From Nitrospirota bacterium (lineage in GTDB: Bacteria; Nitrospirota; UBA9217): a stretch of 64,000 nt of DNA. Below the pieces are notes generated by a model that saw only the letters and a program-made list of their open reading frames with translations, had not been told where the DNA came from and did not search any database. Each line of letters starts with the position of its first letter. Position 1 is the stretch's first letter. The stretch spans positions 32,001-96,000 of the forward strand of contig CAVUHW010000026.1 in assembly GCA_963741205.1 (NCBI GenBank), in the 5' to 3' direction. The translations under genes and the position numbers were made by a program. Shown piece by piece: positions 4,915 through 26,449 of this stretch.

Positions 4915-4959
4915 TCTTGTTATTCCTCCTTATGTAAGATGACGACAGAGCCCGGATCA

Positions 4960-4988
4960 AGCTTACACAAAAAACGCCTGCCTGTCAA
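4960..4988 (-). promoter_or_regulatory. sigma70-type promoter for acs
   Basis: TTGACA-17 nt-TAAGCT on the minus strand, about 45 nt upstream of the ATG. Confidence 0.55.
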
Positions 4989-5149
4989 AGGCGTAAGTCC
5001 GCTCCGGTGTCCGTTTTGCTCTCTGCTTCCCAGCGGACGATCCCGAACCCGTAACGTTTCAACCGCGAAGGCGAAGGGTTCCCCGGCGCAAGTCCCGGTC
5101 TCAGCGGGATGTAAATCAACGCGACGCGGCTGCCCGGTTCAAACCACAT

Positions 5150-5213
5150 AAAAGAAGCGAACCGACGAACGGCGCCGGGGATCCTCTCCCCGTCCGCCGC
5201 TCACCGGTTCACT
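5150..5213 (-). terminator. probable intrinsic terminator after actP
   Basis: long imperfect hairpin GAACCGGTGAGCGGCG...CGCCGTTCGTCGGTTC followed by GCTTCTTTT. Confidence 0.5.
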
Positions 5214-5246
5214 GAGATTCACTGCCTGCTGCATGAGGTTCGACGG

Positions 5247-7037
5247 CTATTCCGCTCCGATACCCACGTACTCCCTGACCTTCTCGGCGTCAAACTTCTC
5301 CTGCGCCTCTTTGTCCGGCGCCAAAAGCGAAATGAGAATACCCATCAGGAACGCGGCGGCCATGGAATAGATACCGGGGTTCTTCAACGGGAAGATGGCC
5401 TTCGGCATGGCCGCGGCTGCGTCCTTCTTCTTCGCCGCAAGCTGCTCCTTCTCCGCTGTCTTTGCGGCGATGGATGCCTGCAGGTCCGCGTTCTTCTTCT
5501 CGGCGGCGGGTTTTTCTTTCTTCTTAAGCTTTGCGATCGCATCGGCGCTGATGATCTGCTTCTGCAGCTCGGCGATCTGCGGGTCGATGGCGGCCGCGGC
5601 TGTATCGATCTCCTTGATCTGGGCCTGGACCTTCGCCACATCGTCCTTGTGCACGATATCGAGCCACACGGTGGGGCTCAGGATGAGGAGCACGACCGCG
5701 ACAATGAGGCCGGTATAGATGCTCATCACCGCCCCATAGGTCGTGAACTTCTTCCACATGATCGACATGAGGAGCGCAGGGAAGTTCGCGCTGGCGGCGA
5801 TCGCGAAGGTGAGGCCGACCAGGAAGGCGACGTTCTGTCCCTTGAACAGGATGCCCAGAAGGATCGCGGTCGCGCCGAGAGCGACGGTTGCGATCTTCGC
5901 CACCTTCACCTCTTCCTTCTCATTGGCGACCCCGCGCCGGATCACGCCCACGTAAAGGTCATGGGAAAGGGCCGACGCGCCGGCCAGGGTGAGACCGGAG
6001 ACCACGGCGAGGATCGTGGCAAAGGCCACCGCGGACAGGAAGCCGAGGAAGACGTTCCCGCCGAGCGCCTCGGCCAGAAGCGGGCCGGCCATGTTGCCGC
6101 CCTTGTCGATGCCCATGATGACCTTCTGGCCCACGAGCACTGCGGCGCCGAAGCCGATCGTCACGGTAAGGATGTAGAAGTAGCCGATGAACCCGGTTGC
6201 GTAGAACACGGACTTGCGGGCCGCTTTCGCGTCAGGCACGGTGTAGAACCGCATCAGGATGTGCGGCAGGCCGGCGGTTCCGAACATGAGGGCAAGCCCC
6301 AGCGAGAATGCGTCAATGGGGCTGGTAACCAGACCGCCCGGTTCGAGGAATTTCTGGCCCAAGGGCGTGGCGACAGCCGCCTGTTTGAAGAGCTCGCCGT
6401 AGCTGAATCCGAACTTGTTCAGGGTCAGGATGACGAGGAGCGTTGCGCCGCCCAAAAGCAGCCCGGCCTTGATGATCTGGACCCACGTCGTGGCGATCAT
6501 GCCGCCGAAGATCACGTAGGAGATCATGAGAGCGCCGGTGATCACGATGGCCAGTTCGAAAGGCAGGCCGAACATGAGCTTGATCAGCGTGCCGGCGCCC
6601 ACCATCTGTGCGATGAGGTAGGTGAGCACGACGACCAGCGACCCGGCGGCCGCGGCCGCGCGAATGGGCCTCTGCTGCAGCCGGAAGGCGACGACATCGG
6701 CAAAGGTGTACTTGCCGAGGTTCCGGAGGGGCTCCGAGATCAGGAACATGATGATCGGCCATCCCACGAGCCAGCCCACGGAGTAGATGAGGCCGTCATA
6801 CCCCTTGGTGGACACGAGGCCCGCGATGCCCAAAAACGATGCCGCGCTCATGTAGTCGCCCGCGAGGGCGAGTCCGTTCTGGAAGCCGGTGATGCTTCTG
6901 CCGGCGGCGTAGAAATCTTTTGTGGTCCTTGTCCTTTTGGCCGCCCACCAGGTGATGAGCAGGGTGGAAATAACGAAGGCGACAAAGAACCCGATTGCAA
7001 CGGGATTGGCCTGTCCAATGATTGTTGTCTGCGGCAT
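5247..7037 (-). CDS. actP: cation/acetate symporter ActP (SSS family)
   Basis: [17 protein letters not shown] and [12 protein letters not shown] motifs; lies between DUF485 and acs. Confidence 0.93.
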
Positions 7038-7038
7038 G

Positions 7039-7350
7039 TTATCCTCCTACCTTTGCTATGACTTTTTTGACGAGCTCGTCATACTTCACATTGGCCCACC
7101 AGATGTAAATGCCCGTAAATACCCACGATCCCAGGATGGTCCCGACGGCAATGGGGATCCCGATCGTGGCCGCCCCGTCCGCGCTCATTTTCTGCGCGAG
7201 AAACGGCTTGTTGTACGCGATCAGGGCAATGAACCCGAAATACAGCACCAGTTCCAGTATCGTCAAGATGATCGAAATGGTGTTCTTCTGGCTGGATAAC
7301 TGCAGGAAATCCGGGTCGCTTAAGATGTCTTCCTTTTTTAATTTTGCCAT
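7039..7350 (-). CDS. DUF485 (YjcH-like) membrane protein
   Basis: two TM segments, [10 protein letters not shown] motif, directly upstream of actP. Confidence 0.85.
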
Positions 7351-7385
7351 GCTTCATCCTCCTTGTGGTTATTTAGTGACGTGCG

Positions 7386-8099
7386 CTAAAAGTTGCTGAA
7401 TACGCTGGTCAGTTTGAAATTATCACCCCCTTTAAATGGAATTCCTATGCGTAAAAGGTTCCCAAGGTCATGAACACCCGCCTCGGCGAGGAGCGGAATT
7501 AACCGCTGAAACAACTGCGCCGTGGTGAACGCATCCATGACCGCATTGTGCGCCCCGTTTACCGCGATATCAAAGCACTTGACGATTTCGTGCAGCCGGA
7601 ATCCGGGGTGCGACGTGGCGGCGTAATCGGGGCACTTGTCCCGTTTCCTCAGCCATTCGTAGATGCTGAAGGTGTCCAGTGCCGGGTTCGGGATTTCAGT
7701 CCCCCGGATCCGCATCATGTCCCGATTGAGGAAACTGAGGTCAATCGAGATGAAGTGGCCCACGAGCACGGCTTCGCCGCAGAACTCCAGAAATTCTCCG
7801 AGCACGGCGTCGATGACCGGTTTCGACTCCACCTCCGACGGCGTGATTTCGTGGATCACCACGCTGGCCGCCGATAATTCGGTGCGCGGGCTGACGACCC
7901 GGTAAAACGTGTCCCCGAGGCCAATGCTCCCGCCGATCATGCGGACCGCGCCGATGGAGACGATGGAGTCCCTCTTCTCGTCAAGACCGGTCAGTTCCGT
8001 ATCCACGACCACGTATCGCGCGTCCGAGATCGGCGTCTTCTCGTCGATCGCCGCTGTTTTCTTTCTTTTTCTCTTGAACAGTCCCAACATAGATTCCAT
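7386..8099 (-). CDS. DEDDh 3'-5' exonuclease-fold protein (DNA Pol III epsilon-like)
   Basis: VVVDTELTGLD, GHFISIDLSFL and HNAVMDA motifs. Confidence 0.88.
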   Translation of the reverse strand: MESMLGLFKRKRKKTAAIDEKTPISDARYVVVDTELTGLDEKRDSIVSIGAVRMIGGSIGLGDTFYRVVSPRTELSAASVVIHEITPSEVESKPVIDAVLGEFLEFCGEAVLVGHFISIDLSFLNRDMMRIRGTEIPNPALDTFSIYEWLRKRDKCPDYAATSHPGFRLHEIVKCFDIAVNGAHNAVMDAFTTAQLFQRLIPLLAEAGVHDLGNLLRIGIPFKGGDNFKLTSVFSNF

Positions 8100-8175
8100 C
8101 GTCAGTCGTAGTCATCAGTCGTCGGTCGAATGATTCACTTGAATAGAGACTATTGACCGACTGACTATCGACTTT
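8100..8175. repeat. inverted array of degenerate heptamers (AGTCRTC ... GACTAT)
   Basis: agtcgtagtcatcagtcgtcggtc followed by gactattgaccgactgactatcgact in the intergenic gap. Confidence 0.55.
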
Positions 8176-8176
8176 C

Positions 8177-10117
8177 CTACCAGATAAGCGATTTGTACCG
8201 TTCGATGATCATGTCCTGTATCTTCGTGATGAGATGGAACGCATCTTTGATCGATCGTTTCTCCAGATTGCTCAGCCGTTTCGGATTGATGAAATTATCG
8301 GGAGCCTCTCCCGCGCTGAGCTGCCTGAACTGGTGGTGGATCCTGAGGAGCATGATGAACTCGAAGGCTTGCTCGAGGTCGTCGGCGTACTCCTCGACGA
8401 TCGTGTGGAGCGGCCTTAGCGTCTCGATCCGCTCGAGCGTCGATGTCTCGTGGATCCCTTTCTCGAGCGCAAAGAGCCGGACGATGTCCACCAGCGGCGC
8501 CAGCCCCTTGACCTTGAGGTTGAGCAAGTCCTTGTGCTCCCCGCCCTTTTCCACCACAAAGGACTTGAAGAACCCGATGGGCGGCCTGTTCTTGATCGCC
8601 ATGTTGGCGAGATAGCCCAGAAACACCCTCTTGTCCCGGAGAAGGGCGTTCAGATCGTCCCGGAGCGTCTCGGCAAGAGTAATGTCGCCGAACATGGGTC
8701 GAAAGTCAAAAAAAGTCACCGAGTGCAGCACCGCGTCCGGCGTGGGCGTATCGATCCACGATGAAAAATATTTTCTCCACACCTTGAGCGGCTGGCGCCA
8801 GAGGGGATTGGCCGCCATGTAATTCGCAGGACAAAGCGGGACGCAGCAGTGGAGGAGCCCGTCCCTAACATCCTCGGCAAACGACGCGAAATAGCTGTCA
8901 GCCGCCTCCGCTTCCTCATTTGACGCCGGGTCCGCATAGATGATGGCGTTGTCCTGGTCGGTCTTGAAGGTCTGTTCCTTGCGGCCCTCGCTTCCAAAAA
9001 CGATCCAGCAATAGGGAACGGGCGGTTTGCCGTGTTTTCGTTCTGTGATTTCGAGGACTTTCCGCACGAGCCGATCGTTGACTTCGGTTATGATCTTTGT
9101 GATATTGCTCGCCTTTGCCCCTTCCTTGAGCAGAAGGCCCACGATGCCGTTGATCTTTTTCGAGACCGGGACGAGCCCTTCGACGGTCTGCTGGCTCTCT
9201 ATGTCCTTCGTAAGGGACAGAGGCGACGTCCCTTGCAGCATCATGAGGTCGTGGTTCGTGATCACGCCGGTGAGCTTGCCGTCCTTGATCACGAGGATGT
9301 GGTGGATATTGTACTTGATCATCCGGAGCACGGCTTCGAAGCAATAATCCTGCGCATCCACCCTGATCAGAGACGTGCTCATGATGTTCTTGACCGGTTC
9401 GTCCACGTTTCGTCCGCGAGACACGACCTTCTCGCGGAGGTCCCGGTCGGTCACCACGCCGACGGGAATATTGTTCCCGCTCATGATGACAACGGAACTT
9501 ATCCTTTTCTCGGTCATGATGGCAGCCGCCTCACGGATCGTCGCGTCCTCCTGCGTGGAGATGATGTCCTTGACGCCCATGTCCCCTACCCTCGTCGTAA
9601 ACAGGAGGCGGTCGCTCCCGCCGTAGAACATGCTCTTGTCCTGCATTTCGCGACTGGTCCGGTCGATGTACATCGAGACGTGCGATTTCAGGAAATACTC
9701 GGTGAAGGAAAGCTGGGCGTCCATGAGTTTTATGAGCATCTCCTTCCTGAGGAGGTAGCAGATCGTGTCGTCCACAGCCGAAACATTCGCCCGCACGCGG
9801 TGCTTGCCGATCATCGAGAGGAAGCCGAAGGTGTCGCCCTCGCCGCGGTAGTCAATCACCAATTCGCCGCCCTCGTCCGAGACCATAGAGAGCTTGACCC
9901 CGCCCTTCTTAATGATGCGGATTGATTCGCTCGGCGGGTCGTCCTGTTTCATGATCAACATGCCCTTGGGATAGAACTCCATGGACACGTTGCCGGCAAC
10001 TGCCTGAAGGTTCTCGTCGTCGAGGAACTGGAAGGGCGGCACTTTCTTGAGGAAAGCTACAACCTCGTCGATAATTATGTCATGACCGGCTTGATTTGAA
10101 CCAGGTAGGGACCTCAT
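8177..10117 (-). CDS. cNMP-binding + CBS pair + DUF294 nucleotidyltransferase-like protein
   Basis: N-terminal cNMP domain, two CBS domains, GSEGRKEQTFKTDQDN NTase motif, DUF294_C region; start placed at ATG 10117. Confidence 0.9.
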   Translation of the reverse strand: MRSLPGSNQAGHDIIIDEVVAFLKKVPPFQFLDDENLQAVAGNVSMEFYPKGMLIMKQDDPPSESIRIIKKGGVKLSMVSDEGGELVIDYRGEGDTFGFLSMIGKHRVRANVSAVDDTICYLLRKEMLIKLMDAQLSFTEYFLKSHVSMYIDRTSREMQDKSMFYGGSDRLLFTTRVGDMGVKDIISTQEDATIREAAAIMTEKRISSVVIMSGNNIPVGVVTDRDLREKVVSRGRNVDEPVKNIMSTSLIRVDAQDYCFEAVLRMIKYNIHHILVIKDGKLTGVITNHDLMMLQGTSPLSLTKDIESQQTVEGLVPVSKKINGIVGLLLKEGAKASNITKIITEVNDRLVRKVLEITERKHGKPPVPYCWIVFGSEGRKEQTFKTDQDNAIIYADPASNEEAEAADSYFASFAEDVRDGLLHCCVPLCPANYMAANPLWRQPLKVWRKYFSSWIDTPTPDAVLHSVTFFDFRPMFGDITLAETLRDDLNALLRDKRVFLGYLANMAIKNRPPIGFFKSFVVEKGGEHKDLLNLKVKGLAPLVDIVRLFALEKGIHETSTLERIETLRPLHTIVEEYADDLEQAFEFIMLLRIHHQFRQLSAGEAPDNFINPKRLSNLEKRSIKDAFHLITKIQDMIIERYKSLIW

Positions 10118-10637
10118 GCCTAACAAAGTAGCAAATTAGATACCAGTTTTCGGACAAAAGAGCCGGCTGTCCACTTTGAAGGTGATAGAGTAGGGCACAT
10201 CGCGGGAGAGGGACAATGAGAAAAAACTAAAGAAGATCGTCGCAATGGCGCCATAACGCGTTAGTGGATTTAAAAAACCATTGATTCAACAGGTTCTCGG
10301 CGCCATGACAGTTTCAACAAACAGCAACAAGGACCGCATATAAGGCTCGAATAAAATTTAGATTAATAATAGATTACACATTATAACTGCACTCTTCACG
10401 ATATTTTTTTTTAGCCATGCTTTGGGTCAACTGAGGGCGGTCCATTTTCCTTCTGCTTCGTAACAAAAAGTAATGGTGAAGAAGAAAAAAAAGATACGAA
10501 AAGTAACCAGACAAAAGGGCCGTGCCGACCTTCGAAACCTTATGAAAGCAAAACAATAGCACTCTCAATAAGTCGCCGGCCACGAACCGATGTGAATTGT
10601 TACTGGTCTTAAAAAATGTAGCGCTTAGCAAAAAGGA

Positions 10638-10730
10638 TGTCATTCCCGATCTCAATCATCTCATCTGAGCGGGAATCCATTTTTAAATAATGGAACAATG
10701 GATCCCCGATAGAGATATTCGGGGATGACA
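10638..10730. repeat. REP-like doublet (TGTCATTCCCG...GGGAATCCA / TGGATCCCCG...CGGGGATGACA)
   Basis: two inverted palindromic units; same family recurs at 22482, 26450, 27543 and 51700. Confidence 0.8.
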
Positions 10731-10811
10731 TACCAGTTGATATGTGATTAAAGATATACAATAACGCGACAGACAATTAAACTGCTAACCGGTACAACCT
10801 CCTGATTATTC

Positions 10812-10820
10812 TGCTATAAT
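10812..10820 (+). promoter_or_regulatory. extended -10 (TGCTATAAT) upstream of the FixC-led locus
   Basis: about 70 nt before ATG 10893, which has a GGGAG RBS. Confidence 0.5.
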
Positions 10821-10892
10821 CTGTCTATCTTTTCAAGACAACGCGTGTCCATTCAAACTTCAATCTTTCATCTCGGATATCCGGGAGTATCC

Positions 10893-13095
10893 ATGATAAA
10901 TTACAGGTTCGACGTCGTCATCATCGGCGCAGGTCCTGCCGGTGTGACCGCAGCAGGCGCCCTCGCGGGCAGCGGAATATCCGTTGCCTTGCTCGAGGCC
11001 GGGGTGTATGCAGGCGCGGAAAACTGGTCAGGCTGCGTTTACTTCACGGAGAGCCTCGCGGATCCGGACTGCTTCGGGTCTGCCGCGGTCGAGGCAGCTC
11101 CCTTTGAGCGTCGTGTGACGAGACGTGGCACGCTCCTCCATAACGGCCTGGACGTGGTTGGCGTCGAACTCACTGAGCCTTCGGCCTTCAAGAACTGCTA
11201 CACCGTGCTCCGGCCGGTCTATGATCCCTACTTTGCGCACCTGGCCTCCGCAAAAGGCGCCGTTCACATCACGGAAACGACCGTCACCTCGCTCATCCGA
11301 AAGGACGGCAGGGTCATCGGCGTCCAGACGAACCGCGGACCTCTCTACGCCGCTATCGTCTTCATCGCCGAGGGCGACGCGTCCCATCTCGTTCGGTCGG
11401 AACAGCTCGAACGCGTTCCGGAGCCTCACTACCTCCAGGGCGTCAAGGCGGTGCTCTCGCTCGCTCCGGAGGAGATCGAAAAGCGGTTCGACCTCAAGCT
11501 CGGGCGAAGGCTGCGCGTACGAGATTCTCATCAGGAACGCGCAGATCGCGGGAAGGACCGCGAGACTGAACGTCGGGCGGCTTCCTGTACACGAACAAGG
11601 ACAGCCTGTCTCTGGGTTATGTCCTCCCCCTGGACAATCTGAAAAACCATTACCAGGGCGACCACGACCGGCTCTTCGAATGGATGAGGGGCCTCCCTTT
11701 CATCAAGGAACTCACCGGTGACGCGAAGCTCTCGGCATACGGCACCAAAATCGTCAGGAGCGGCGGATGGAGCGAACGGCCGGTCCTCGTCGAGGACGGA
11801 CTCGCTGTGGGAGGCGCGTCTGCGGGGCTCGGTATTGACATTCCCTTTCCGAATTTCACCGGCCCGGCCTCGGCCACGGGACTCCTGTTCGCCCGCGCAG
11901 CGAAGGTTATTCTGGGCAAAGGCCGCACTCCCGATATAAAAAACCTTACGAAGGAATATCTCGTGCCGCTCCAGCGAGAGCGTATACGGAAAGAACGCGC
12001 GGTATCTTTCCCAATGGCCCCGCTATTTCGGAAAGTCGTCCGTGCTCTTCGGAAGGACCGTGGACATGGCCTGCGGCAGCGCGCATTTCCTTTCGACCGG
12101 GAGTTATGTGGAGACGGGGAGGTTCCTCAGAAAGCACATCCTCTCCTTCCGCGGGCTCAGGGAATCGACAGGCGACACCCTGCGCGCGATTGGCAGCCTC
12201 CGGCTCTGGAAGCCGATCGTCAAGACGATCGTGAACCCCGTCACGTGGGGCACATGGATTTCAAACATCCTTTCGCAAAAAGCCTGCCGACAAGCGCCTA
12301 GAAATCATCATGAGCATCGGAGGCAGACGGGTAGAGGCATCTTCCCTTCCCTGGCCCGCGGGCCCGCTCCTCAAGCGCCTTTCCCCGGCTCTCTCCCGCG
12401 CCATCAGGGCGGTCTATGCCAATGACGATGTCCCGGCTGAGAAGAAGTTTCCCGAGGCCATCGAGATCATGATCCAGTCTCTGAGCCTTTCGGACTTTAT
12501 CGTACTTCCTCTCTTCGGCCTTACCCTCTTCTGCCTATCTGTCCTCACCGCGTCGTGGGACGCCTTCCGGTTTTACGTGCTCAAGACGCCGGTCGCAAAG
12601 CTCCTCGCGGAGCCGGTGATGGCATACAACGAGGAGCAGAGAAAGGCGCGGGACCTCGACGCGATAAAACCCGCGATCGGATTCGAGGCCAAGCTCGCGA
12701 CAAACACTTACCGCGTGGGGAGCGAGTCGCATATCAGGACGCTCTGGCCCGCGTCGCTCGTATCACAGCCCGAGATGTCGCGGGCCTCGCTGTGGTGGGT
12801 CTGTCCTGCCCGGGTATACGGCTACGATGCGCCGCTTTCCGGCCGCGGTAAAGTAACGGTGAATTTCGAGAACTGCATCAAGTGCGAATCCTGCTGGAGG
12901 GCCGAGCCGCGTGCCGCCCTCTGGGGCAGGCATACGGACCACAAACTCATCTACCGCCCCGAGAGCGGCGCGATCCCGGCGCTCCTGGATTCCTCTGAAG
13001 CGATGGACCATCCCGCCTCCACCCCCCCCGTCAAGGGAGGGGGAACTCAACCCCTTGTTCCCTGGTGGGAGAGTGCAGGGGAGAGGGAGAGTTGA
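10893..13095 (+). CDS. FixC-like ETF:quinone oxidoreductase fused to a FixX-like ferredoxin (about four frameshifts); probably the N-terminal part of a larger fusion
   Basis: DVVIIGAGPAG FAD motif and FLYTNKDSLSLG; the FixX Cys set VCPARVY...NCIKCESC is in frame with the FixC-proximal region; stitched from ORFs 10845, 11125, 11684, 12042 and 12310. Confidence 0.8.
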
Positions 13096-13109
13096 GCTTC
13101 CGTCGATGA

Positions 13110-16100
13110 AAGCTCTGGAACCTGAACGAGGATATTCTTCTCGCTTCCCGTGAAGCGAAAAGCGCATCGGCCGCTTTCGTCGATGCTGTCTCGAAGCTGC
13201 CCGCGTCAGCGGATGAGGGCAGAAAGGCCTGGCCCCTTGCTCTCGGAAAACGGCTCGGCGCGAAGCTCCAGAGGCTCGAATCAGCCCTCTTGAACGACGG
13301 CAGGCACGAGCCCGCACAGGTCATTCAGTCCGATCGAAAAGACATAGAGCAGCGCCTTGCTGATGACAGGCTCTTCCATGCGCTCTACTGCTGTCACCGG
13401 CTTGAACAACGGCTCGATGCATGGTTGTCAAATACCCCCTTCGCGAAAAGGGGGATCGAGTTACGTCCCCCGACGCCGGCCCTGAGCGTAGCCGAAGGGC
13501 AAGGGGCGGACAATGGAGGACTCGCGGTTTCCTATGAAGAAGTTTTAGCGATCTTCCCGGACCGGATCGTGAAAGAGTGGGAAGAGGCGCCCATGCCCGA
13601 AACGTGGGTTGGAACGCTTCGAAAATTCATCGCCGAACATCGCGAGGCCCCTCTCGAAACGATACGCGCCCTCTCCTCGGTCAGCCCGGCACTGGGCCTC
13701 ATTGCAGCGCATCAGTTCTCGGCGCTGACCATTTTAAAAGAAGGCGGCATCAGACTCGACCCTGGCATCTGCGCGGTGCGCGCCGACCATCTTGACATCC
13801 GGGAGAGCATCGACACGCGTCCATCTCACGGGAACGCTCAAGCTCATCCCCCTTGCCGCATGCAGCGCCATCCTCATCATCGCGCGGGAGAGAGGGCACC
13901 TCGTCCCGCTCTCCTCCGCGGGCATCACGGTCACCCCCACTCCCGCGATCGGATTCCGGGCCGCGGGACTTGCCGATGTTGCGCTCAACTGCACCGTAAA
14001 GAAATACGCTATCATCGTTCCGGAAAAATCAGCGGATCCCGACGCAGCATCATACCTCGCCATCGCCCTGGGGGCAGGCGATTATCTTTGCAAGAGGATC
14101 AAGGAGCATGCACTGGGCCGGGTCCAGTTCCCGGGTCAGATGCTCGACACGGAAGGACGTGACGGCATCGCGAAGCTCGGCGCGGTCAAGGCCATGATCG
14201 CCAGGACCGAGGCCTGGCGCCTCCTCCTGGAAACGCTGTACGACACTATCATCATATCCTCTCCCCTCGGGGGAGAGGACAGAGGTGAGGGGGGTTCGCC
14301 GCATTCCGCACTCCGAAAGGAGCCCGCCCTCGAAGGCTTTTATCGGGGGCAATCCGAAATCCACCTTGATCTTCTCTGCTCCACCCTCGCCGCCCTTGCT
14401 TACAGCCCCGAGCCCGGCAGCATGGGTTACGACGCGGGACAGGTCTTCGGAGGTTTTGCCTATTCCGAGGATGACCTCTTGTCTCGTTTCTACCGCGACA
14501 GCGCGCTCTTTCGGTTTCTCGCCCCCGGATACGGGGCCGCTGAAAAACTGAACGCCTCGCTCGTTACCGGCATTCCGCAATCCGCATTTCGAGACGAGCC
14601 CCTGAATAAACTTGCCCGAAAGCTTGCGGAACTCGACAAAAAAAACGCCTCCCTGCCGGAGAATGCGGACCCCGGGCTTGCCGGACAGGCGAAGGCTCTG
14701 GTCGTCGGCATACAGCTCGTGCTTGCGAAGACGGAGGACGGGCTCGCTTCCGGTGAAAGCATGGAGGCCGAGGCAGCGGCTGCGGAAGTGCTGATCGGGC
14801 TTGCAACGGATGCATTAAACAAAGCGGCGTTGTCCTCCGGATGGGGGATGGTGCAGCCGGCCGCATTCCTTCCCGTGGAACCGGTTGGCAAGGCGGTCGC
14901 GCTTGACCCGGATTACGAGTCCTTCTGTACGGCAGCCGGGACACCGCACAAATCGGGCGGTTTTTTCTTCACGACCTTCGACCGCTCACCCCGCTTCGTT
15001 CCCGAGATACAATTGCACGATCCGCGCCTGCGCGCCCGCTGGACGGAACTCGCCGGCTGGTTCAAGAAGAACTGCCGGGACCGGAAATACGACGGGCTCT
15101 TCATCGAACGGTATATCGAAAAAATCCACGGACTTCCCCCGGAGGTAATCGAAGCAATCAAAGAGCGCGGCTGGCTCGCCACCTATATCCCGAAATCGGA
15201 GGACGGCCTCGGCTGGCGCAAGGCCGAGTACTACATCCTGAATGCCGTGGCCGGGAGCTTCGGCGACGCGGGCATCAACCTGCTCATCATGGCGAACACG
15301 AGCATCGGCACCACTCCCATCCTCCTCGGGCTCGAGGAAGAACTTCCGCGCGTACGCGAGGAGCTCGCTCCCCTGGCGCAGGACTCGAACAAGCTTGGAG
15401 AGATAGGCGCAAGGCTGACGAAGCTCATCGCGTCCTTTCAAAACCCCAACCCCTCGTGGATCAAGAAAGAGTACGAGGCGGTGATGAAGCTCGTTGACGA
15501 GCGCATCCGCCATACACGCGTGGTCAAGTACCTTGCCGCCAATTTCCTGCGCGCTTTCTACGGCGCAGGCATTGCCGGACGTCGCGGGGACTTCGGCGGA
15601 TTCATGACGAACCTCAGGCGGGCCGCGGAATTGTTCGGACACGTCATGCCCGATGTGCGCGCAGCGCTTGAGGAACTCCCCCGGCGGGAGCGCTGCCACC
15701 GCCTTTTCCTCCGGTACCTCGGTCACGGCGCGGTGAGCGCCTTCGCCCTGACCGAACCGACGGCAGGCTCTGATTCCGGAGGCGTCAAGACCACGGCCAA
15801 ACTCAGGATCGTCAAGCTTACCCCCCTCGAGGACGGCAGATACGCCTTCCGGCTCGATGAAAGGGACGAAACAAGCGTCCGCTACCTGATCGACGCGGAC
15901 AGGATCATGTTCCTCGAACACGGCATCGCGTATCGGACTCCGGATGGCGAGTCTGCCCCGATCCGGTATGACCGCTATGACTACGCCACGGACCTGGGCA
16001 TCCGCGCTTACCGCTATCAAGACAAGGACTGCGAGTTCCACGACATCGGCCAGGTGCGTTCGTCCGACGCTGGTCCGGTGTATGAATTCTTCAGCCTCAC

Positions 16101-17200
16101 GGGCGCAAAGATGTGGATCACGAACGGCAGCATCTCGACCCAGCTCTGCCTCTACGCGCAGACGACGGAGGGGGTCACGGGCTTTATGGTGGACCGGCAT
16201 GCGGAAGGCCTCAAGGTCGGCGCGGACGAGAAGAAGATGGGGCAGCGGGGTTCGCCCACGAACGAGATATCCATCGACAGCGTGCGAGTGCCGCGCGAGG
16301 CCGTGATCGGGTACGAAGGTCATGGCCAGGTGAACGCACTCGAGACGCTGAACGTGGGACGCTGCGGCCTTGCGGTCGTTTCAACCTCGCTCATGCACAA
16401 GCTTCTGGAAGAGGCGACGCTCCTGGCGCCCCCGTCTCGCGAGCGGGACCGCCTCCTTGGCGAAGCCGCAGCGGTGCTCTTCGGGAGCGAGTCCCTCGCC
16501 TTCTACCTGATCGGCCTGTTCGACCGGCCCCATGAGTCGGTCCGCATGGAATCGGCCGTCGCGAAGTACGCCTGCTCCGAGGACATCCACGAACTGATCT
16601 CGCTCGTGGAGCGCGCCTTCGGCCCTGCCGGACAGACCGAAAAATTCCTCCTTGAGAAGGCGCGGCGCGACGCACGCATCCTCACGATCTACGAAGGCAC
16701 GAATGAAGTACAGCGATTTTTGATCCTGAAGGACCTTATCGCCCAGGCAGCGGTCTGGCCCGAGCTTGCGGCAAACCCGGATGACGCGAGGGCCGCAACG
16801 CTTGCTTCATGGAAGAACCGCCTGAGAACGTTTGTCAGGAATGCGGCGGACCTGCTCGGCGACACAGCCTGGTCCGATGCCATGCTCCAGCCGGCGTTCT
16901 TTCCGCTCGCGGAGATGGCCGCGGAGACGCTGCGGCTCGAGTGCATTTACTATCGAATTGAATGGCTCGATGCGCGAAAGGAGCTTCTGGCGCAGTCCGG
17001 ATTGGAATATGAGCCCCTTATCAAGGACGCCGGCAAAAGGGCCGCGGAGAGGACCGTGTCGCGCCTCGAAGGGCTCCTCGCAAAATATGAGCCTCTGTGG
17101 GAAGAAGTGCGCATAAACCATGATCCGGCAGAGGTGCGCGCAGCCGATGCGGCGCTCGACCGGGCTGCTGTACCGGCGAGCGCGCTTCCCGGGCGGATGA
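13110..17200 (+). CDS. tandem acyl-CoA dehydrogenase domains (first degenerate, second intact); frameshift near 13815
   Basis: ACAD1: RVQFPGQ...AGQVFGGFAYSEDDLLSRFYRDS. ACAD2: AFALTEPTAGSD, GAKMWITNG, EKKMGQRGSPTNEI, RRDARILTIYEGTNEVQR. Confidence 0.85.
14257..14362. repeat. composite palindromic repeat inserted in frame in the ACAD coding sequence
   Basis: perfect IR TCCTCTCCCC/GGGGAGAGGA at 14257-14279, CCGCATT heptamers, and REP-like GCCCTCGAAGGCTTTTATCGGGGGC at 14326-14350. Confidence 0.7.
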
Positions 17201-18961
17201 CGCCGCTTCTGGCCCCGTTCCGGGTGCTCGCCATCCTCCGTCCCGTTGCCGATCTTGCGCCCTCTCCCCGACCTGACCGACGGTTCGATTGCCGAGCTCG
17301 TGTGGACCGGCGATCCCCTCGATTGCTCCGGCCTTTTCCAAGCCCTGACGCTCAAGGAGCAAAGCCTTGCGAAGGTCGACGTAGACGTGCTTTTTGTCGG
17401 CGGACCCGAGCACGAAAGTGTCCTTCGCTCGTCCGCCGCCGGGGCGGACAGATTCATGCGATTGGACCACGGCCACGGCTCACCCGCGGCGCTTGCAGAC
17501 GCAGTGCGAACGCTGGAGTTTTCTGGCGCCTATGACCTCATTACGATCGGGTCCCTGTGCCGCGACGGAGAACAGGGCATCGGCGCATACCTTGCCGGCG
17601 CTCTCGGAAGGACGCACTTTCGGAAGGCCCGGCTCCTGATTCGGCAGGACGGACTGGGGCTGGAGCATATAACGCCGCCGGCTGTCGTCGAAACTACGGG
17701 AGCGACTTCTGCCCGCGAGGCGCATATCGCGAAGATCGTTGAAGCGGCGTCAGCCCGCGTCACAACGCTCCATTCCTCCGACCATGCGGCCGCTACCCTG
17801 CTGCCGAGGTTCGAACGTCCTGCCGGAGCCGCGACCTCGACAAAGACGATGACAACGGTGTCCGACATTGCGGATTATCTCAAGACTTATGCCGCCAGGG
17901 CCCGTTCAGCCCAGGCGGAGGAATACCGGGGAAGCGTCATCCCGGCAGGTCCAGCCCATGGGAATGCAGTCTGGGCGGCCCTCGACCCGCGGGAAATGAA
18001 AGCAAACGCCGCGATCCTTTCCGCAGGCAGACAGCTTGCAGACCTGTTCGAAATGCCCGTAAACGCGGTCATACCCGCGCCGCGTGCCCTTTGGCCGCAG
18101 CTGGCGGGCCTGGCGCGATCGAACGGCGCGAACTGCGCCTACTGTCTCGACACCGGCGCCGGGATGCTCTCCATCGAAGGGAAGCGGGAACTTTTGCGCA
18201 TTCTCTCGAAAACTGCGGAACGGCCCCTGGTCCTCGGCGGCTCATACTGGATTGATGCCTTCGGGCTTGTTGCCGGCGAACTTGCTGCCCGCCGGAGAAA
18301 CGCGCGCGTAATCGGAAATGTCGGAGCGATTTCGTCACAAGACCGCGGGGCTGCGCTGCTTTCGATTCCCGCCTACGACGGCAGGCTCATTCGGAAGGAA
18401 CGACTGGAGCAGGGCGCGGCGTTCCTGACAATCTCGCAGGACGCAGGAGTCAGGGCGGAGAAAATCCAAAGCGACTTTTCCGCTTTCGCACTCGAGTATT
18501 CGCTCAGCGAGACGTGGCTCATGCCCCTTCCGGCCGAAGCCGGACCGACCCTCACCCAGGCCGACGTGATCATCACCCTGGGCTACGGGATCAGGGACCG
18601 CGCTGGTCTGGAACTGGCGCAGGAACTCAAGAAGAAGCTGGAGGCCCTGGGACTCACCCCCCTGTTCGGCGCCACGCGCAAGGTGACTCAGGATTTAAAA
18701 CTCCTGCCGCTCGAGGCGCAGATAGGCCAGACCGGCGTCCGCGTAAACCCCGGTCTCATCATCGCCCTCGGCATCTCCGGCGCACCGCAGCACATAGACT
18801 ATGTTGGCACACGGGCCGAGATCCTCTGCTTCAACAAGGACCCCGACGCGCCCTTGATGAAGCTGAACCAGACTCGTCCCTCGCCGCGGGTCCATCCCAT
18901 CTCCGGGGACCTCTTCGTTACGGTGAGGAGAATTGATCGATAAACTAGGGCAACCACGTTA
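17200..18961 (+). CDS. ETF beta-like domain fused to ETF alpha domain, continuous with the ACAD ORF (frameshifts near 17270 and 18928)
   Basis: RVLAILRPVAD...DPLDCSGLFQALTLKE (beta-like) and ATRKVT...QIGQTG...IALGISGAPQH...FNKDPDAP (alpha FAD domain); the alpha and most beta motifs are in ORF 17246..18943. Confidence 0.85.
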
Positions 18962-19004
18962 GACAAGACAACTCATCTTGCGCAATAAGAATTGGAGACG
19001 GGAC

Positions 19005-19688
19005 ATGATCCGTGCTAAAGTTATTTCCTTCATCGCCTGGGCCATGATTTCTCTTTGGGGCAGGACGGCGCGCATCCTTTTCGAGAATCGGGAAATAGCG
19101 GGCCGGCTGAAGGCGGAGGGGAAAAGCTTTATCTTTGCCTTCTGGCACGGCGACCTGTTCCTGCTCACGTACTCCCACCGGGGGTCAGACGTCGTCATTC
19201 CGGCAAGCGAAAGCAGAGACGGCGAGATCATGGCAAGGCTCTTGAAACGCTTCGGCTACCATGTGGTGCGCGGATCGAGCAAGCGCAAAGGGGCCAGGGC
19301 CGCTATCGGCCTTATCGAAGGACTGCGCAGCGGGAGACATCCCGCCATAGCCGTAGACGGTCCGCGAGGTCCCCGGCATGAAGTGAAGGAGGGTGTCGTA
19401 TATCTTGCCGGCAAGCTGAAGGCGCCTATCATTCCCGTTGCAGCGAGGGCAAAACGTTATTGGGTTTTGGAAAAAACCTGGGATAAACTCATGATCCCCG
19501 CCCCTATGACGGACGCCCTGATATTATACGGCGAGCCGGTTATCGTCAACGGCACTTCCGAAGAGGAGATCGAGTCAAAGCGCAAGGAGTTGGAAAGGGT
19601 CATGCTCGGGCTCACGCAAGAAGCGCAAACGCGTGCAGAGGCAAAGGCCTCGCCTTCATGGTGGTCTCGCTGGAGCAGAGTGGGTTGA
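19005..19688 (+). CDS. DUF374 lysophospholipid acyltransferase family protein (LpxJ-like)
   Basis: FWHG, SESRDGE, RGSS and DGPRGP motifs. Confidence 0.85.
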   Translation: MIRAKVISFIAWAMISLWGRTARILFENREIAGRLKAEGKSFIFAFWHGDLFLLTYSHRGSDVVIPASESRDGEIMARLLKRFGYHVVRGSSKRKGARAAIGLIEGLRSGRHPAIAVDGPRGPRHEVKEGVVYLAGKLKAPIIPVAARAKRYWVLEKTWDKLMIPAPMTDALILYGEPVIVNGTSEEEIESKRKELERVMLGLTQEAQTRAEAKASPSWWSRWSRVG

Positions 19689-21470: not shown

Positions 21471-21788
21471 CTATTTATGACATTTGGCGCAGTTCGCTTT
21501 TTCCTTAACGTCAAAAGACTTCCCACCGTTGTGGCATTTCCCGCAGAAAGCGCCTTTCGTAATCTGACTCATGTCCATGGCGTAAGATCCTTTGCTCATC
21601 TGGAACACATGGTAGTGGCACCCCGAACACTTGATGCCTTTGGAGCTCACGTGCTTTTGATGGCTGAAGACCACCGGCGCGGCGTCTTTGGACGAAAAGG
21701 TCAGATCGCCGCCTCCCACTTGATCCGCCCCTGCGCTGAAGGGGATCATAAGACAGAATAAGAACCAGACTACCGCAGCCTTTTCCAT
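21471..21788 (-). CDS. triheme c7-type periplasmic cytochrome
   Basis: signal peptide, VVFSHQKH, three CxxCH motifs (CSGCH, CGKCH, CAKCH). Confidence 0.88.
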   Translation of the reverse strand: MEKAAVVWFLFCLMIPFSAGADQVGGGDLTFSSKDAAPVVFSHQKHVSSKGIKCSGCHYHVFQMSKGSYAMDMSQITKGAFCGKCHNGGKSFDVKEKANCAKCHK

Positions 21789-21932
21789 GTTCCCTCCCCC
21801 TTTAATCGTCGGTCGACACTAACGTAGTATAGCAGAAATTAACGGGAAACCGTGACACGTCCCTGCGTCCATGATATATTCTTAGCAAATTTCTAGCCCT
21901 GATGGTGTGATCACGATCACAAATACGGGAAG

Positions 21933-22443
21933 CTACCTGCCGATAGCTTTCAGGATTCCCTGAAGCAGGGCCGTGGGTGTCGGGGGGCAACCCGGTATTC
22001 GGGCATCAACGGGGATGACCTTGTCAATGCCCCCGAGCGAGGCATAAGCTTTCGCCGAATATGCCGCCCGTACATCCGCAGTCTCCGACGGCAACCACGA
22101 GTTTCGGCGTCGGAGTGGCGTCGTAGGTCCTCCTGAGCGCGATCTCCATATTATGGGACACCGGCCCGGTGACCAGCAGCATGTCGGCGAACCTCGGTGA
22201 TGCGGTAAAATGGATGCCGAAGCGCTCGCAGTTGTAAATGGGGTTGTTGATGGCGTGGATCTCGAGCTCGCAGGCGTTGCACGAGCCGGCGTCTACCTGG
22301 CGGATCGTGAGGCTTCTCCGGAAGCGGCGCCTGATGACCTCCTCCAGATGCACGCCGATCTTTTCGAGCTCCGGATCGGTGATCGGCGGAAGCGGCTCGG
22401 TGACGATGCCGGTGTGGAAGATCTGTTTAAGGATTCGGATCAT
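21933..22443 (-). CDS. hyfI: Hyf/Ehr small Fe-S subunit (NuoB-like), copy B; frameshifted near the 3' end
   Basis: DAGSCNACE, SPRFAD, GDCGC; IPGCPPTP...GILKAIGR* in a shifted frame. Confidence 0.85.
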
Positions 22444-22481
22444 AAAGCTCCGTGAGAAAAAATAAATTCCAACACCGAACC

Positions 22482-22586
22482 GTCATTCCCGAATGATCTA
22501 TCCACGATTGATTCATTCGAGGACGAATCCATTTTGAATTTAGCATTGGAAAAGGCCAATGGATTCCCGCTTTCGCGGGAATGACA
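22482..22586. repeat. REP-like doublet between hyfG and hyfI
   Basis: GTCATTCCCGAATG ... GGATTCCCGCTTTCGCGGGAATGACA. Confidence 0.8.
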
Positions 22587-22610
22587 ACCTGAGTCAGATA
22601 CCTTCCTTAT

Positions 22611-24181
22611 TTATAAATCATTCCCCGAATACGACTGATTAAAGCTCTTATTGCATACCGGGAAATCGGGGACGATGTTCCCGTGGATGCACTGCTCCAG
22701 CCCGAGCCAGTTCACGCTCGAGGGGTCCCTCACCATGCAGCGGTTGATCTCCCCGGCGGCCCCGACTGGACCCAGTAGAGGATCTCACCGCGCCAGCCCT
22801 CGACAGCCGCAAATCCGCACCTGTCAGGCAGCGGCGGGCTGACCGGGGCGGTAATTGCTCCGTCCGGCAGGGTTTTCAGGATCTCCCGGATGATCCGTAT
22901 GGAGTCCCTGATCTCTTCCACCCTGACCCATGCCCTGGCATGGACGTCACCGGAGACGAGCACCGGTATGGTCACGCCGATGTGGTCATAGGGAGGGAAT
23001 GGATCGTGGATGCGGCAGTCGAGGTTCAGGCCGCTTGCGCGGGCCACGAAGCCCACCACGCACAGGTCCCTCGCCTTCTCGGAGGTGAGGATGCCGGTGT
23101 CCCTCACCCGGTCCTCGACGGAGGCGTTTTCGTCATAGATGACGACGAGCCTCTCGAATTCCTTCGCCAGCCAGTCCATTTCCGAAAGGATCGCCTGAAC
23201 GCCGCCTGCGTCGATATCAACGGCCGTACCGCCCGGAACGACCTTGTCCATCATGAACCGGTGACCGAAGAGCCTGAGGTTCGTGCGCAGAAGTGCTTCC
23301 TTCAGCCTACTGAACTGATACAGCAGGATGGCGAAGGCCACGTCATTACAGATGGCGCCGAGGTCGCCCAGGTGGTTCGCGATGCGCTCCCGCTCGAGAA
23401 ATAATGCGCGAAGCCACAGGGCGCGGTCGGGCGGCGCGCACCCGGTCATGGCCTCGACTGCGCGCGAATAGGCCAGGCTATGCGCGACCGTCGTGTCGCC
23501 GGACACGCGGCCTGCCAGTCTCGATGCCTCGTCCCAGGAAAAGGACTCGAACCGTTTTTCGATCCCCTTGTGCACGTAGCCCAGTTTTTCTTCCAGATTG
23601 ATGACGTCCTCTCCCACGGCCTGGAAGCGGAAATGTCCGGGCTCGATGATGCCCGCGTGCACGGGGCCGACGGGGATCTCATAGACCCCCTCGCCCTCGG
23701 CCCGGATCCAGCGATATTCGCCGTAGACCCTCGGCATGCGGCTTGAGGCGTCAAAGGACTTTCTCAGCGGCCAGGCATTCTCCGGCCAGTCTTCATGCTT
23801 TATCCAGGGACGCGCGTCGGGATGGCCGGTGGCGGTAACGCCCATGAGACTTTTCATCTGGCGCTCGAACCGGAAGGCAGGAACAAATTTTTTCGTGAGG
23901 CTGGGAAACGTCGGATCGTCAGCGGGAGCGAGTGTCTTTACGATCAGGTATTCCGTCTCCCTCCGGTAACAGGCATAGATCCCGAATCCCCGTTCGAAGG
24001 CGGTCTCATCCGCCGCCCATTCGGCGGCAAGCAGGGCATATTCCTTCTTGAGTGCTTTTGCCGCTTCGGCAAAACGCTCCCGCGGCACGAGAAACATGGC
24101 AACGGAAGAAGGATACTGGCCTTCCACTGCTTTCGCGTCCGGGCCGAATTTTGATAATATGAGCTCTTTTAACTTGGCCAT
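22611..24181 (-). CDS. hyfG: Hyf/Ehr large subunit (NuoC/D-like) lacking NiFe-binding cysteines, copy B; frameshift near 22755
   Basis: GPVHAGIIEPGHFRF, GRVSGDTT and C-terminal VPDFPVCNKSFNQSYSGNDL*. Confidence 0.88.
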
Positions 24182-24195
24182 GTCAAACACCCGAG

Positions 24196-24247
24196 GGACG
24201 ATGGACGAGGGTCGAGAGACGAATAGTCTTTGCGTCCATCGTCCCAG
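24196..24247. repeat. intergenic palindrome GGGACGATGGACG...CGTCCATCGTCCC
   Basis: 13-bp perfect inverted repeat between hyfF and hyfG. Confidence 0.65.
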
Positions 24248-24295
24248 TGAGCGAAACAAGCGGTCGTCCGTCACTCATCAGAAGTAACCTTCCGT

Positions 24296-25752
24296 TCATT
24301 TCAACAGCTCCACCGCCGTCTGGAACCACCCGGCGAGGAACTTCGGCATATAGAGGCCGAGAACGAGTACCACCGACATGTGCAGTATCACCGGGACATG
24401 TGCGACTTTAAGCGGTGCTGGTAGGGAGGCCGTTCTCCCGAGACCATGGGCTGCACCCTTCTGAAGAGCGCCGCAAAGGACACGCCGAGCCCCAGGAGGA
24501 GAAACGGCGCCAGGAGCGGCGCGTCCTTGATCGTGGCCGTCAGGATCAGGAACTCGCTGGTGAACACGCCGAAGGGCGGCATCCCGACGATCGCCATGAC
24601 CCCGAGCGCCAGCCCCCACCCGACGAGAGGATTGCCGCGGATCAGCCCTTTGATCCTTTCCATCTCCTGGGTCCTGTGCATCTGCGAGGCGTGGCCCACG
24701 GTGAAGAAGATGGAAGACTTGGTCAGGCTGTGGACCAGCATGTGGAGAAGCGCCCCGAAGGTCGCCACCGGGCCGCCGAGGCCGAAGGCGAAGGTGGCGA
24801 TACCCATGTGTTCGATGGAGGAATAGGCAAAAAGCCGCTTGATGTCCTTCTGCCGCAGAAGGGAGAAGGAGGCGACGATGATCGAGAGGATGCCGAAGCC
24901 CATCATGATATCGCCCGAATGGTGCGTCCCGGTGGAGCCGTCCACGAGCACTTTGCACCGCACCAGCGCGTAGAGCGCGATGTTGAGCAGAAGCCCCGAG
25001 AGCACAGCGGAGATGGGCGTGGGGCCTTCACTGTGCGCGTCGGGCAGCCAGTTGTGGATGGGCACGAGCCCCACCTTGGTGCCGTATCCCACCATGAGAA
25101 ACACAAAGGCCAGAGACAGGATCGTCGGTTCGAGCTGGTTGCTTACCTGGTATAGATTCGTCCAATGGAGAGCCGCGCCGCCTTCGCCGAGCACCTTTTC
25201 CGCCGCAAAGTACAGGAGCACGGTGCCGAAGAGCGCGAGGGCGATGCCCACGCCGCAGAGGATGAAATATTTCCACGCGGCCTCGATCGCGGCCGGCGTG
25301 CGGTACAGGGACACCAGAAGGACCGTGGACAGCGTGGCCAGCTCCATGGCGATCCAGAGAATGCCCACGTTGTTCGTCAGGAGGCAGAGCAGCATGGCGA
25401 AGATGAAGAGCTGGAACATGGCGTGGTAGAAACGAAGCCGTCGGTGGCCGATGGTGCCGTGCTCGCGCTCACGCCGCATATAGCGCCTGCTGAAGATGGC
25501 TGTGGTCATGGAGACAAAGGCGGTGAGAACCGTCAGGTAGACACTGAAGGCGTCGACGAAGAAAAAATTATTCCCCGCCAGGATCGAGCCGTGCTCATAG
25601 ACCTGGAGCGCAAGCTGGATGCTCGCGACAAAGGTCGCGGCGGAGCCGAGGATGTTCACCTCGGGCGCAAGCTTCCGGTCGCCGACGAATGCCAGCGCCA
25701 GGGCCGACGACGAAATAGAGCGGAACGCCTAAGAAGATATGAGAAGCTCCAT
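24296..25752 (-). CDS. hyfF: Hyf/Ehr antiporter-like membrane subunit F, copy B (frameshifts near both ends)
   Basis: EAAWKYFILC, GYGTKVGLVPIHNWLPDAHSEGP and AYSSIEHMG. Confidence 0.88.
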
Positions 25753-25760
25753 CGAGAACC

Positions 25761-26426
25761 TCAGTCTTCTTCCTTCAGCCTCGCCATCTGGTCCACATCG
25801 AGGCTGTCGAAGGTGGTGCTGATGTGGAAGAAAAACATCCCGAATATGAACGCCGCGATCAACAGGTCCAGGGCCACGCCCAGCTCGACCACCAGGGGCA
25901 TGCCGTAGGTGGCGCTCGTGGCTGCGAAGAGGAGCCCGTTTTCCATGGCGAGGAACCCGATGATCTGGGTGACCGCGTGCTTTCTGGTGATCATCATCAG
26001 GAAGCCGAGCATGACCGTGGCGAGGGCGACCGCCAGGGTGGACCGGGTCACGAGTGTGGAGAGCTCCCTGATGGGAGCGGTAAGATGATAGGAGAATATC
26101 ACCAGAACGATCCCCATCAGCATGGTGGTGGGGATGTTCACCACCGTCTCCACTTCCTTGTGGATCTTCAGCTTAACGATCAGCTTATGCAATATGTACG
26201 GCAGGAGGACGACCTTCATCGATAGCGTCAGGATGGAAGAGATGTACAGATCGTGTTTGCCCCCGACATACCCGACGATAGCGGTGCTGACGGCGAGCAG
26301 GAACCCCTGCCACGCGAACAGGTGCAGAAGGGCGTTCATCCTCCGCTGCACCACCAGGGCAAAGGCGGTAAGGAGGATCATGGCCGCGAGCAAGCTGTTG
26401 ATCTGCGCTGCAAGGTGCATGTTCAT
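25761..26426 (-). CDS. hyfE: Hyf/Ehr membrane subunit E, copy B
   Basis: multi-TM protein with GFLAMENG, GMPLVVELGVALD; position in operon. Confidence 0.88.
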   Translation of the reverse strand: MNMHLAAQINSLLAAMILLTAFALVVQRRMNALLHLFAWQGFLLAVSTAIVGYVGGKHDLYISSILTLSMKVVLLPYILHKLIVKLKIHKEVETVVNIPTTMLMGIVLVIFSYHLTAPIRELSTLVTRSTLAVALATVMLGFLMMITRKHAVTQIIGFLAMENGLLFAATSATYGMPLVVELGVALDLLIAAFIFGMFFFHISTTFDSLDVDQMARLKEED

Positions 26427-26449
26427 GTCATTCCTCTGATCATTCAATT

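Follow-up and report, generated by a model that had tools for sequence, protein, structure and literature searches.

A conserved single-chain fusion of FixC, FixX, acyl-CoA dehydrogenase and electron-transfer flavoprotein modules in Nitrospirota, probably an acyl-CoA:menaquinone oxidoreductase

A gene on the forward strand of a 64,000-nucleotide stretch of a Nitrospirota genome (hereafter the window; contig CAVUHW010000026.1, positions 32,001 to 96,000, GenBank assembly GCA_963741205.1, GTDB lineage Bacteria; Nitrospirota; UBA9217) encodes one giant polypeptide, in which a FixC/EtfC-like flavoprotein domain, a FixX-like iron-sulfur domain, two acyl-CoA dehydrogenase (ACAD) folds, ACAD1 and ACAD2, and the EtfB and EtfA parts of an electron-transfer flavoprotein (ETF) follow one another. 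The fused enzyme itself is real and conserved, and it is apparently unstudied. We regard it as probably a self-contained acyl-CoA:menaquinone oxidoreductase, a single chain of ~2,680 residues whose gene is fragmented only by eight insertions in the assembly. An earlier interpretation of the same DNA, made without database searches and called here the sequence-only reading, had proposed such a fusion of ~2,700 aa in one or two polypeptides, and Pfam, profile and fold comparisons located all the domains that it named on the forward strand, where it had put them. The coordinates of all features are collected in Table 1.

As assembled, positions 10806-18943 hold seven overlapping open pieces in three frames. 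The ATG at 10893 is the start, with GGAG just upstream and a position that matches the start of the homologues in the alignment, and the stop codon lies at 18941-18943; the sequence-only reading had the start right and set the end at 18961. With eight single bases taken out, the frame runs through 2,680 codons without a stop and retains the four Cys of the iron-sulfur domain and the catalytic Glu of ACAD2, and its product is identical to homologue P0001 (2,657 aa) at 1,797 of 2,657 residues (67.6%). When the 1,265-aa piece at 13738-17535 was used as query, 10 of 31 related genomes gave stop-free frames of 2,639-2,677 aa. Three relatives carry ATG-started open reading frames (ORFs) of 2,657 aa (P0001), 2,636 aa (P0002) and 2,661 aa (P0003), which bear out the predicted length and domain order; the order is identical in the three, and the host of P0003 belongs to a different family of Nitrospirota.

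The gene encodes one polypeptide and not two, because the linker between FixX and ACAD1 is unbroken both in the homologues and in the corrected frame. This linker had been left as the one ambiguous junction (13020-13110, with a TGA at 13093). We find two frame steps within 12993-13110, from frame 1 to frame 2 near a C8 run (13022-13029; break at ~13038) and from frame 2 to frame 3 near 13107, and the part between them is correct in frame 2, where it aligns with the linker of the homologues. The TGA at 13093 falls outside the reading frame and was discarded as a true stop between FixX and ACAD. The idea that each part has a gene and a start of its own was likewise ruled out: the homologues are continuous, so that no junction needs a start, in line with the earlier failure to see any there, and close homologues are single ORFs instead of the separate genes that would have spoken against a fusion. 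A scan of the gene for internal sigma-70-type promoters found 5 sites where 2.0 were expected, with just one on the forward strand, and is uninformative.

Ungapped tblastn with an intact homologue places the frame breaks near 11500, 11577, 11975, 12270-12289, 13819-13850 and 17212-17268, plus the linker; against P0001 the path goes through frames 3, 1, 2, 3 and 1, then from 1 to 2 and 2 to 3 in the linker, and then from 3 to 1 and 1 to 2. All eight changes are single-base insertions (+1), several of them in C/G-rich contexts such as CGGGCG and the C8 run. Public contigs of relatives, from four runs in two studies, mostly 95-99% alike and at a depth of 2-4, cover four of the eight breaks and have exactly one base fewer at 11573, 12286, 13818 and 17272, which is true of every covering contig. 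These results speak for the earlier view that the internal breaks are base errors. The breaks are very probably assembly errors, because acs, glnE, dsrA and other genes of the same genome are split alike, and the assembly (a draft, 84% complete, in 50 contigs) seems to carry a systematic single-base insertion error; gene calls on it will break up long genes. In the search of the phylum described below, several other few-contig Nitrospirota genomes likewise hold broken copies of the giant gene.

Eight frame breaks within 8 kb could also be real, the gene being a true pseudogene in the window's strain and intact in its relatives, and the contigs that lack four of the insertions, at 95-99% likeness, possibly come from other strains. 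We consider this quite improbable, since the corrected frames hold no stop over 8 kb and keep all key residues, and since eight changes that are all single-base insertions, with the core genes dsrA, mqn, acs and glnE split likewise, form the pattern of a systematic error.

The fusion is frequent within a narrow range of hosts. Among 301 Nitrospirota genomes, 52 have a match at E ≤ 1e-50, with 44 of the 63 genomes of the window's own family and all 7 of one other family, and none was found in the 32 further families sampled; intact frames of 2,609-2,721 aa occur in at least 27 of the 301. In a search of 5.8 billion proteins, 333 matches of the 1,461-4,650-aa class had E ≤ 0.001. Among the matches listed (120 of 333), most are 2,600-2,900 aa long and come from metagenome-assembled genomes (MAGs) assigned to Nitrospirota, Nitrospiria or Leptospirillia. 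Where a database name is given, it is 'acyl-CoA dehydrogenase family protein', 'FAD-binding protein' or 'electron transfer flavoprotein-quinone oxidoreductase'. A motif-pair search for related loci, in which one pattern was generic (G[AS]KMWITN), was dominated by ordinary ACADs; of the 80 loci retained, a single one proved to be a full-length relative. No distinct stand-alone family of the ACAD1 region was seen, in a search that cannot prove absence; its 35 shorter matches (32-77% identity), one of which is the window's own 1,247-aa ORF, look like fragments from contig ends or frameshifted assemblies. In one relative, at G205:C2:133906-136191, the match is limited to residues 1-493 and 2443-2656, which lie near each other on the same strand, and this short copy may be an internally deleted remnant.

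The anatomy of the protein was drawn from the intact homologues and from alignments of 24 homologues. At the N-terminus, Pfam assigns the piece 10806-11642 to flavin adenine dinucleotide (FAD)-oxidoreductase families. The profile of the FixC domain matches EtfC (PDB 7koe_C) at E 7.9e-45, residues 3-435 against 2-437, and its model superposes on the same chain with Z 38.6 and a root-mean-square deviation (rmsd) of 2.5 Å over 415 of 438 residues at 26% identity; the window copy and P0001 share 359 of 436 residues in this domain. The NCBIfam FixC model PRK10157 scores 139 bits, far under its cut-off of 610, and the domain is therefore not an equivalog of Escherichia coli FixC; none of the NCBIfam models passes its threshold on the protein. 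The alignment to 7koe_C stops at residue 436-438, where a helical insert begins, modelled with a predicted local distance difference test (pLDDT) score of ~90 and helices at 489-508, 515-528, 534-561 and 574-586. A 28-residue hydrophobic helix of this insert (window 12493-12576) is proposed to act as a membrane anchor.

The iron-sulfur domain that follows had been described as a four-Cys FixX domain, and this description stood. C637, C661, C664 and C667 (codons 12802-12804, 12874-12876, 12883-12885 and 12892-12894) are the sole invariant Cys of the entire protein across the 24 homologues, and all are present in the window. The eight-Cys, two-cluster pattern of EtfX was not found, no further Cys being conserved in residues 560-720 or elsewhere in the 24 homologues, and the four invariant Cys point to one [4Fe-4S] cluster, as in ETF-quinone oxidoreductase (ETF-QO). 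The Pfam match to Fer4_ETF_QO (PF05187) in 12235-13095 is weak (E 0.0014, 19.2 bits against a cut-off of 24), with 19.2-20.2 bits over window and homologues. The model of residues 1-663 matches ETF-QO 2gmh_A at Z 24.8, with the cluster domain modelled at a pLDDT of ~30.

The claim of two ACADs held for the folds, and only in part for the active sites. In the 1,265-residue piece Pfam finds the N-terminal, middle and C-terminal Acyl-CoA_dh models; PF02770 and PF00441 (middle and C-terminal) are above cut-off on the window piece, P0001 and P0003, and PF02771 (N-terminal) on the window piece and P0003, with 19.0 against 22.9 in P0001. The best PDB matches of ACAD2 are CarC (6fah_C, E 1.7e-29) and Bcd (5ol2_C, E 1.1e-28). 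Its catalytic Glu, whose position in Y-E-G-T we take to be that of Glu376 of MCAD, is encoded by GAA at 16693-16695; this residue (E1908, motif YEGTNEVQ) is shared by all 24 homologues and by the window copy.

ACAD1 is unseen by Pfam and forms a complete ACAD fold in the homologue model, of which residues 54-394 match 7xp7_C best (VIA-align: Z 25.5, rmsd 3.2 Å, 314 of 369 aligned). Sequence identity to its structural ACAD matches is 12-19%, and its profile matches ACADs no better than E 1.6e-4 and in the C-terminal half only. The C-terminal motifs of ACAD1 align with the R-x-Q-F-G and Q-x-x-G-G-x-G-Y...Y-R-D of true ACADs, and the motif RDSALFRFLxPG occupies the position of RDARILTIYEGT in ACAD2, so that nine residues past the RD of Y-R-D there is a variable residue and then an invariant P-G, where ACAD2 has Y-E-G-T. 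Judged at this position, ACAD1 is without the catalytic base. It likely supplies the partner half of the ACAD2 dimer and of its FAD site, in an intrachain pseudo-dimer. A variable loop of ACAD1 in the window contains, at 14259-14278, a perfect small hairpin (CTCTCCCCT, loop, GGGGAGAGG) in frame. The core pattern of this hairpin was counted 17 times genome-wide, whereas a control pattern gave 0 (forward) and 1 (reverse), and the contigs of relatives part from the window sequence at 14258; the element is a dispersed palindromic repeat inserted in frame. All three linkers of the protein are helical and without a cofactor motif.

In the ETF module the two subunits differ markedly in conservation. 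The EtfB domain, whose profile finds 4kpu_B (E 5.3e-14), 5ol2_B (1.2e-11) and 1o94_C (2.7e-11), has only 10 invariant columns (alignment A5, first sequence 246 residues), whereas domain II of EtfA, the FAD head, is strongly conserved. The EtfA part matches CarE (6fah_A, E 3.7e-22) and human ETF alpha (1efv_A, E 9.3e-21) by profile, and Pfam ETF_alpha (PF00766) in 17201-18943 at E 7.5e-19. According to the sections used here of a study on a pair of conserved ETF arginines (PMC8958531), the EtfB loop reads DGDTAQ in 216 bifurcating ETFs, where T is conserved to 100% and Q to 93%, while 449 canonical ETFs have DDDSNQ, and an Arg of EtfA domain I, needed to bind FAD or AMP, is kept in 447 of the 449 canonical ETFs. 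In the giant-fusion family this 'zipper' loop is variable, [DN]-G-[DE]-x-S/G, and corresponds to neither form; the T-A-Q of DGDTAQ is absent in 24 of 24 homologues. The Arg column, assigned through a hidden Markov model alignment to CarE and human ETF alpha and, by its numbering, presumably Arg-165 of RpaETF, holds Ile in the window and Arg in only two of the 24 homologues, which both belong to the second Nitrospirota family. Because the loop is variable, the Arg lost and EtfB poorly conserved beside the EtfA head, the ETF base resembles, by its sequence, a scaffold that lacks the usual nucleotide, and bifurcation appears unlikely.

For the acyl-CoA:menaquinone oxidoreductase that we favour, the following electron path is proposed. 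ACAD2, with its FAD, would pair within the chain with the dead ACAD1 and oxidise an acyl-CoA; the FAD of the mobile EtfA head in the fused EtfB-EtfA module would accept the electrons, which would go on through the single [4Fe-4S] cluster to the FAD of the FixC/EtfC-like domain, and from there to membrane menaquinone, with the hydrophobic helix of the insert tethering the enzyme to the membrane. Such a chain would hold three FAD and one cluster. The final steps are proposed in this form because they are modelled on the solved EtfABCX. In the published account of the Thermotoga maritima complex, in the parts on which we draw (PMC10734219), the clusters lie on the high-potential path that leads from the electron-transferring FAD (ET-FAD) to the quinone-reducing FAD of EtfC, and EtfC is membrane-associated and binds menaquinone. 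The genome of the window has futalosine-pathway (Mqn) genes above cut-off and carries dsrAB, and no ubiquinone hydroxylase was found above cut-off in it. Because of its menaquinone synthesis genes and dsrAB, the organism is probably a menaquinone-using anaerobe.

Several observations weigh against this assignment or parts of it. The public contigs leave the breaks near 11499, 11973, 13038 and 13107 uncovered and represent close relatives, not necessarily the window's strain. The low-scoring model of the iron-sulfur domain is unreliable, and that of the ACAD1-ACAD2 pair reached a predicted template modelling (pTM) score of 0.59. Gene context gave no hint of the substrate: among the loci of 23 relatives, each flanking gene is found in 8 at most, the commonest neighbours there being aspartyl-tRNA synthetase and CheR-type genes, and the 53 flank ORFs of the window gave 0 matches at E 1e-6 to the flanks of these loci; unconserved neighbours would fit a self-sufficient single-gene unit. 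A further point concerns energetics. The acyl-CoA/enoyl-CoA couple lies near -10 mV. The potential of menaquinone is given as ~-74 mV (PMC10734219, in the part used here). Oxidation of acyl-CoA by menaquinone would then be uphill at standard conditions, because menaquinone is the more negative of the two, and this favours the reverse direction or some form of coupling.

The reverse reaction is therefore a serious rival, although it remains clearly the less probable one. The same chain would let menaquinol reduce an enoyl-CoA, as an electron sink or within a reductive pathway, and from the menaquinone potential (PMC10734219) to the enoyl-CoA couple this flow would be downhill. A menaquinone maker with dsrAB, probably an anaerobe, would suit such a role, and the top ACAD matches in PDB and NCBIfam are the ETF-linked reductases CarC, Bcd and AcrC. 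In Escherichia coli, CaiA with FixABCX is proposed to run in the enoyl-CoA-reducing direction. However, the sequence holds nothing that sets the direction, and reductases of the CarC, Bcd and AcrC type are fed by bifurcating ETFs, whose marks are missing here. A bolder formulation, for sulfate-reducing Nitrospirota, sees the fusion as a terminal reductase anchored in the membrane or as a reversible 'acyl-CoA/menaquinone valve', working without the AMP or FAD that all ETFs studied so far require in the base, with a covalent linkage that replaces the nucleotide as glue. We put it forward as a speculative idea; if true, it would mean a new build of ETF and a route between the quinone pool and CoA-thioesters that models of these organisms do not yet include.

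A bifurcating or confurcating enzyme, with a second FAD in the ETF base that couples NADH or ferredoxin to the acyl-CoA/quinone reaction, would overcome the uphill step to menaquinone and would suit the nearest solved relatives of FixC, EtfA, EtfB and ACAD2, all from bifurcating complexes (7koe, 6fah, 4kpu, 5ol2), as well as the two second-family sequences that keep the Arg, but it is very unlikely, given that the T-A-Q so well conserved in bifurcating ETFs (PMC8958531) is missing, that 22 of 24 sequences and the window copy have another residue in place of the nucleotide-binding Arg, that so few EtfB columns are invariant, and that no ferredoxin or NADH-binding domain and no extra conserved Cys was found in the protein.

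Every module of the acyl-CoA:menaquinone oxidoreductase proposed here, and the logic of the chain, is already known, and known fusions cover only parts of it. EtfABCX of T. maritima (7KOE), like FixABCX, combines EtfB, EtfA, a FixC/EtfC flavoprotein and an iron-sulfur module between the ETF FAD and menaquinone (PMC10734219, in part), and its EtfC is the top structural match of the N-terminal domain of the fusion. It differs in having four separate subunits and no ACAD, in the two [4Fe-4S] clusters that the same account gives for EtfX, against one four-Cys site in the fusion, in its bifurcating FAD with NADH and ferredoxin as partners, of which the fusion lacks the sequence marks, and in lacking the 170-residue insert with its hydrophobic helix. 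The classical system of ACAD, ETF and ETF-QO (1T9G, 2GMH) follows the same logic, from acyl-CoA through ACAD FAD, ETF FAD, one [4Fe-4S] cluster and a further FAD to quinone, and the single cluster of ETF-QO lies C-terminal to the FAD domain, as is predicted for the fusion. The classical chain, in contrast, consists of three to four separate proteins in transient contact, its ETF holds AMP by the conserved Arg and the DDDSNQ loop, both of which are lost in the fusion, and its ACAD is a homotetramer or homodimer instead of an intrachain live/dead pair. In steroid degradation, two-domain or heteromeric ACADs (ChsE/FadE pairs, CasC) form a functional dimer of a catalytic and a non-catalytic unit with one FAD per pair. 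By this description they resemble the live/dead pairing of the fusion, but they are free-standing and work with a separate ETF. Bcd-EtfAB (5OL2) and CarCDE (6FAH) are stable ACAD-ETF complexes, whose CarC and Bcd are the top matches of ACAD2 and whose CarE is the top match of EtfA; unlike the fusion, they are bifurcating, soluble, made of separate subunits and without a link to quinone. SaETF of Sulfolobus acidocaldarius has EtfB and then EtfA in one chain, the order of the fusion, and its homologues adjoin ACAD, ETF/Qor or FixCX genes; it joins just the two ETF subunits and keeps two FADs and bifurcating properties (PMC12042025, in the parts used here).

A full-text literature search, with subscription journals largely outside its scope, found no published description of the whole fusion, which agrees with the suspicion that it was undescribed, but the sequences themselves stand in public databases under generic names. 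ACAD, ETF and quinone reductase usually meet transiently, which makes their electron-transfer complexes hard to trap, and a natural single chain would be directly suited to cryo-EM and to kinetic work on inter-flavin transfer, with the live/dead ACAD pair and an ETF base seemingly without a nucleotide site as particular objects of interest. Because the gene is confined to two Nitrospirota families among the genomes searched, with many hosts being uncultured soil or sediment organisms, it may mark a particular link between CoA-thioesters and menaquinone.

Table 1 Features of the giant fusion gene and split genes of the same genome (window positions unless a genome contig is named; residue numbers are those of the intact homologue)
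Feature	Position	Strand	Remarks
Whole giant gene	10893..18943	+	~2,680 codons after dropping eight single extra bases
FixC/EtfC-like FAD quinone-reductase domain	10893..12203	+	residues 1-436
Helical insert, ~170 residues	12204..12705	+	residues 437-604; no EtfC counterpart
FixX/ETF-QO-like [4Fe-4S] domain	12706..12993	+	residues 605-700
Helical linker FixX-ACAD	12994..13484	+	in frame in all homologues; window frame restored by two single-base removals
ACAD1 fold without catalytic Glu	13485..14577	+	residues 853-1193
ACAD2, presumed catalytic, with insertions	14989..16746	+	residues 1340-1925
Helical linker ACAD2-EtfB	16747..17202	+	no cofactor motif, no conserved Cys
EtfB-like domain (ETF domain III), weakly conserved	17212..17821	+	residues 2081-2282
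EtfA-like domains I and II	17951..18940	+	residues 2326-2657
Frame breaks	near 11499, 11574, 11973, 12269-12286, ~13038, 13107, 13810-13818, 17255-17272	+	from tblastn and base removal
Split acs	2938-4929	-	three pieces
Split NuoB-like gene	21936-22482	-	two pieces
Split glnE	39376-42500	-	two pieces
Split dsrA	G000:C8:197604-198750		two adjacent frames
Split mqn gene	G000:C36:54234-54876		two pieces

The giant gene is followed at 18978-19688 by a gene for a DUF374 protein (Pfam). Divergent from it, on the reverse strand at 2938-10135, lies an acetate-type cluster with a DUF294/CBS/cyclic-nucleotide (cNMP) nucleotidyltransferase, an RNase T-like exonuclease, an SSF symporter and acetyl-CoA synthetase, an arrangement that was not found beside the giant gene in the 23 relatives' loci. 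Further downstream, also on the reverse strand (21474-37207), a cytochrome c7 gene precedes two tandem complex-I-like, Mrp/Mbx-like sets, in which Oxidored_q6, a fused 30-kDa/49-kDa subunit, Proton_antipo_M and NADHdh each occur twice.

The same genome also holds a conventional ACAD-ETF set. At locus L113 (G000:C31:53000-67000), the reverse strand carries, at ~4100-11600, an ACAD of 425 aa, EtfB and an EtfA with a ferredoxin domain within a fatty-acid synthesis cluster, in the order plsX, fabH, ACAD, etfB, fd-etfA, fabD, fabG, fabF, rnc, and this set may serve lipid synthesis as an enoyl reductase. The cluster is adjoined at L113:12506-13684, on the forward strand, by an IS605 OrfB/TnpB-type gene with a Cas12f-like TNB domain.

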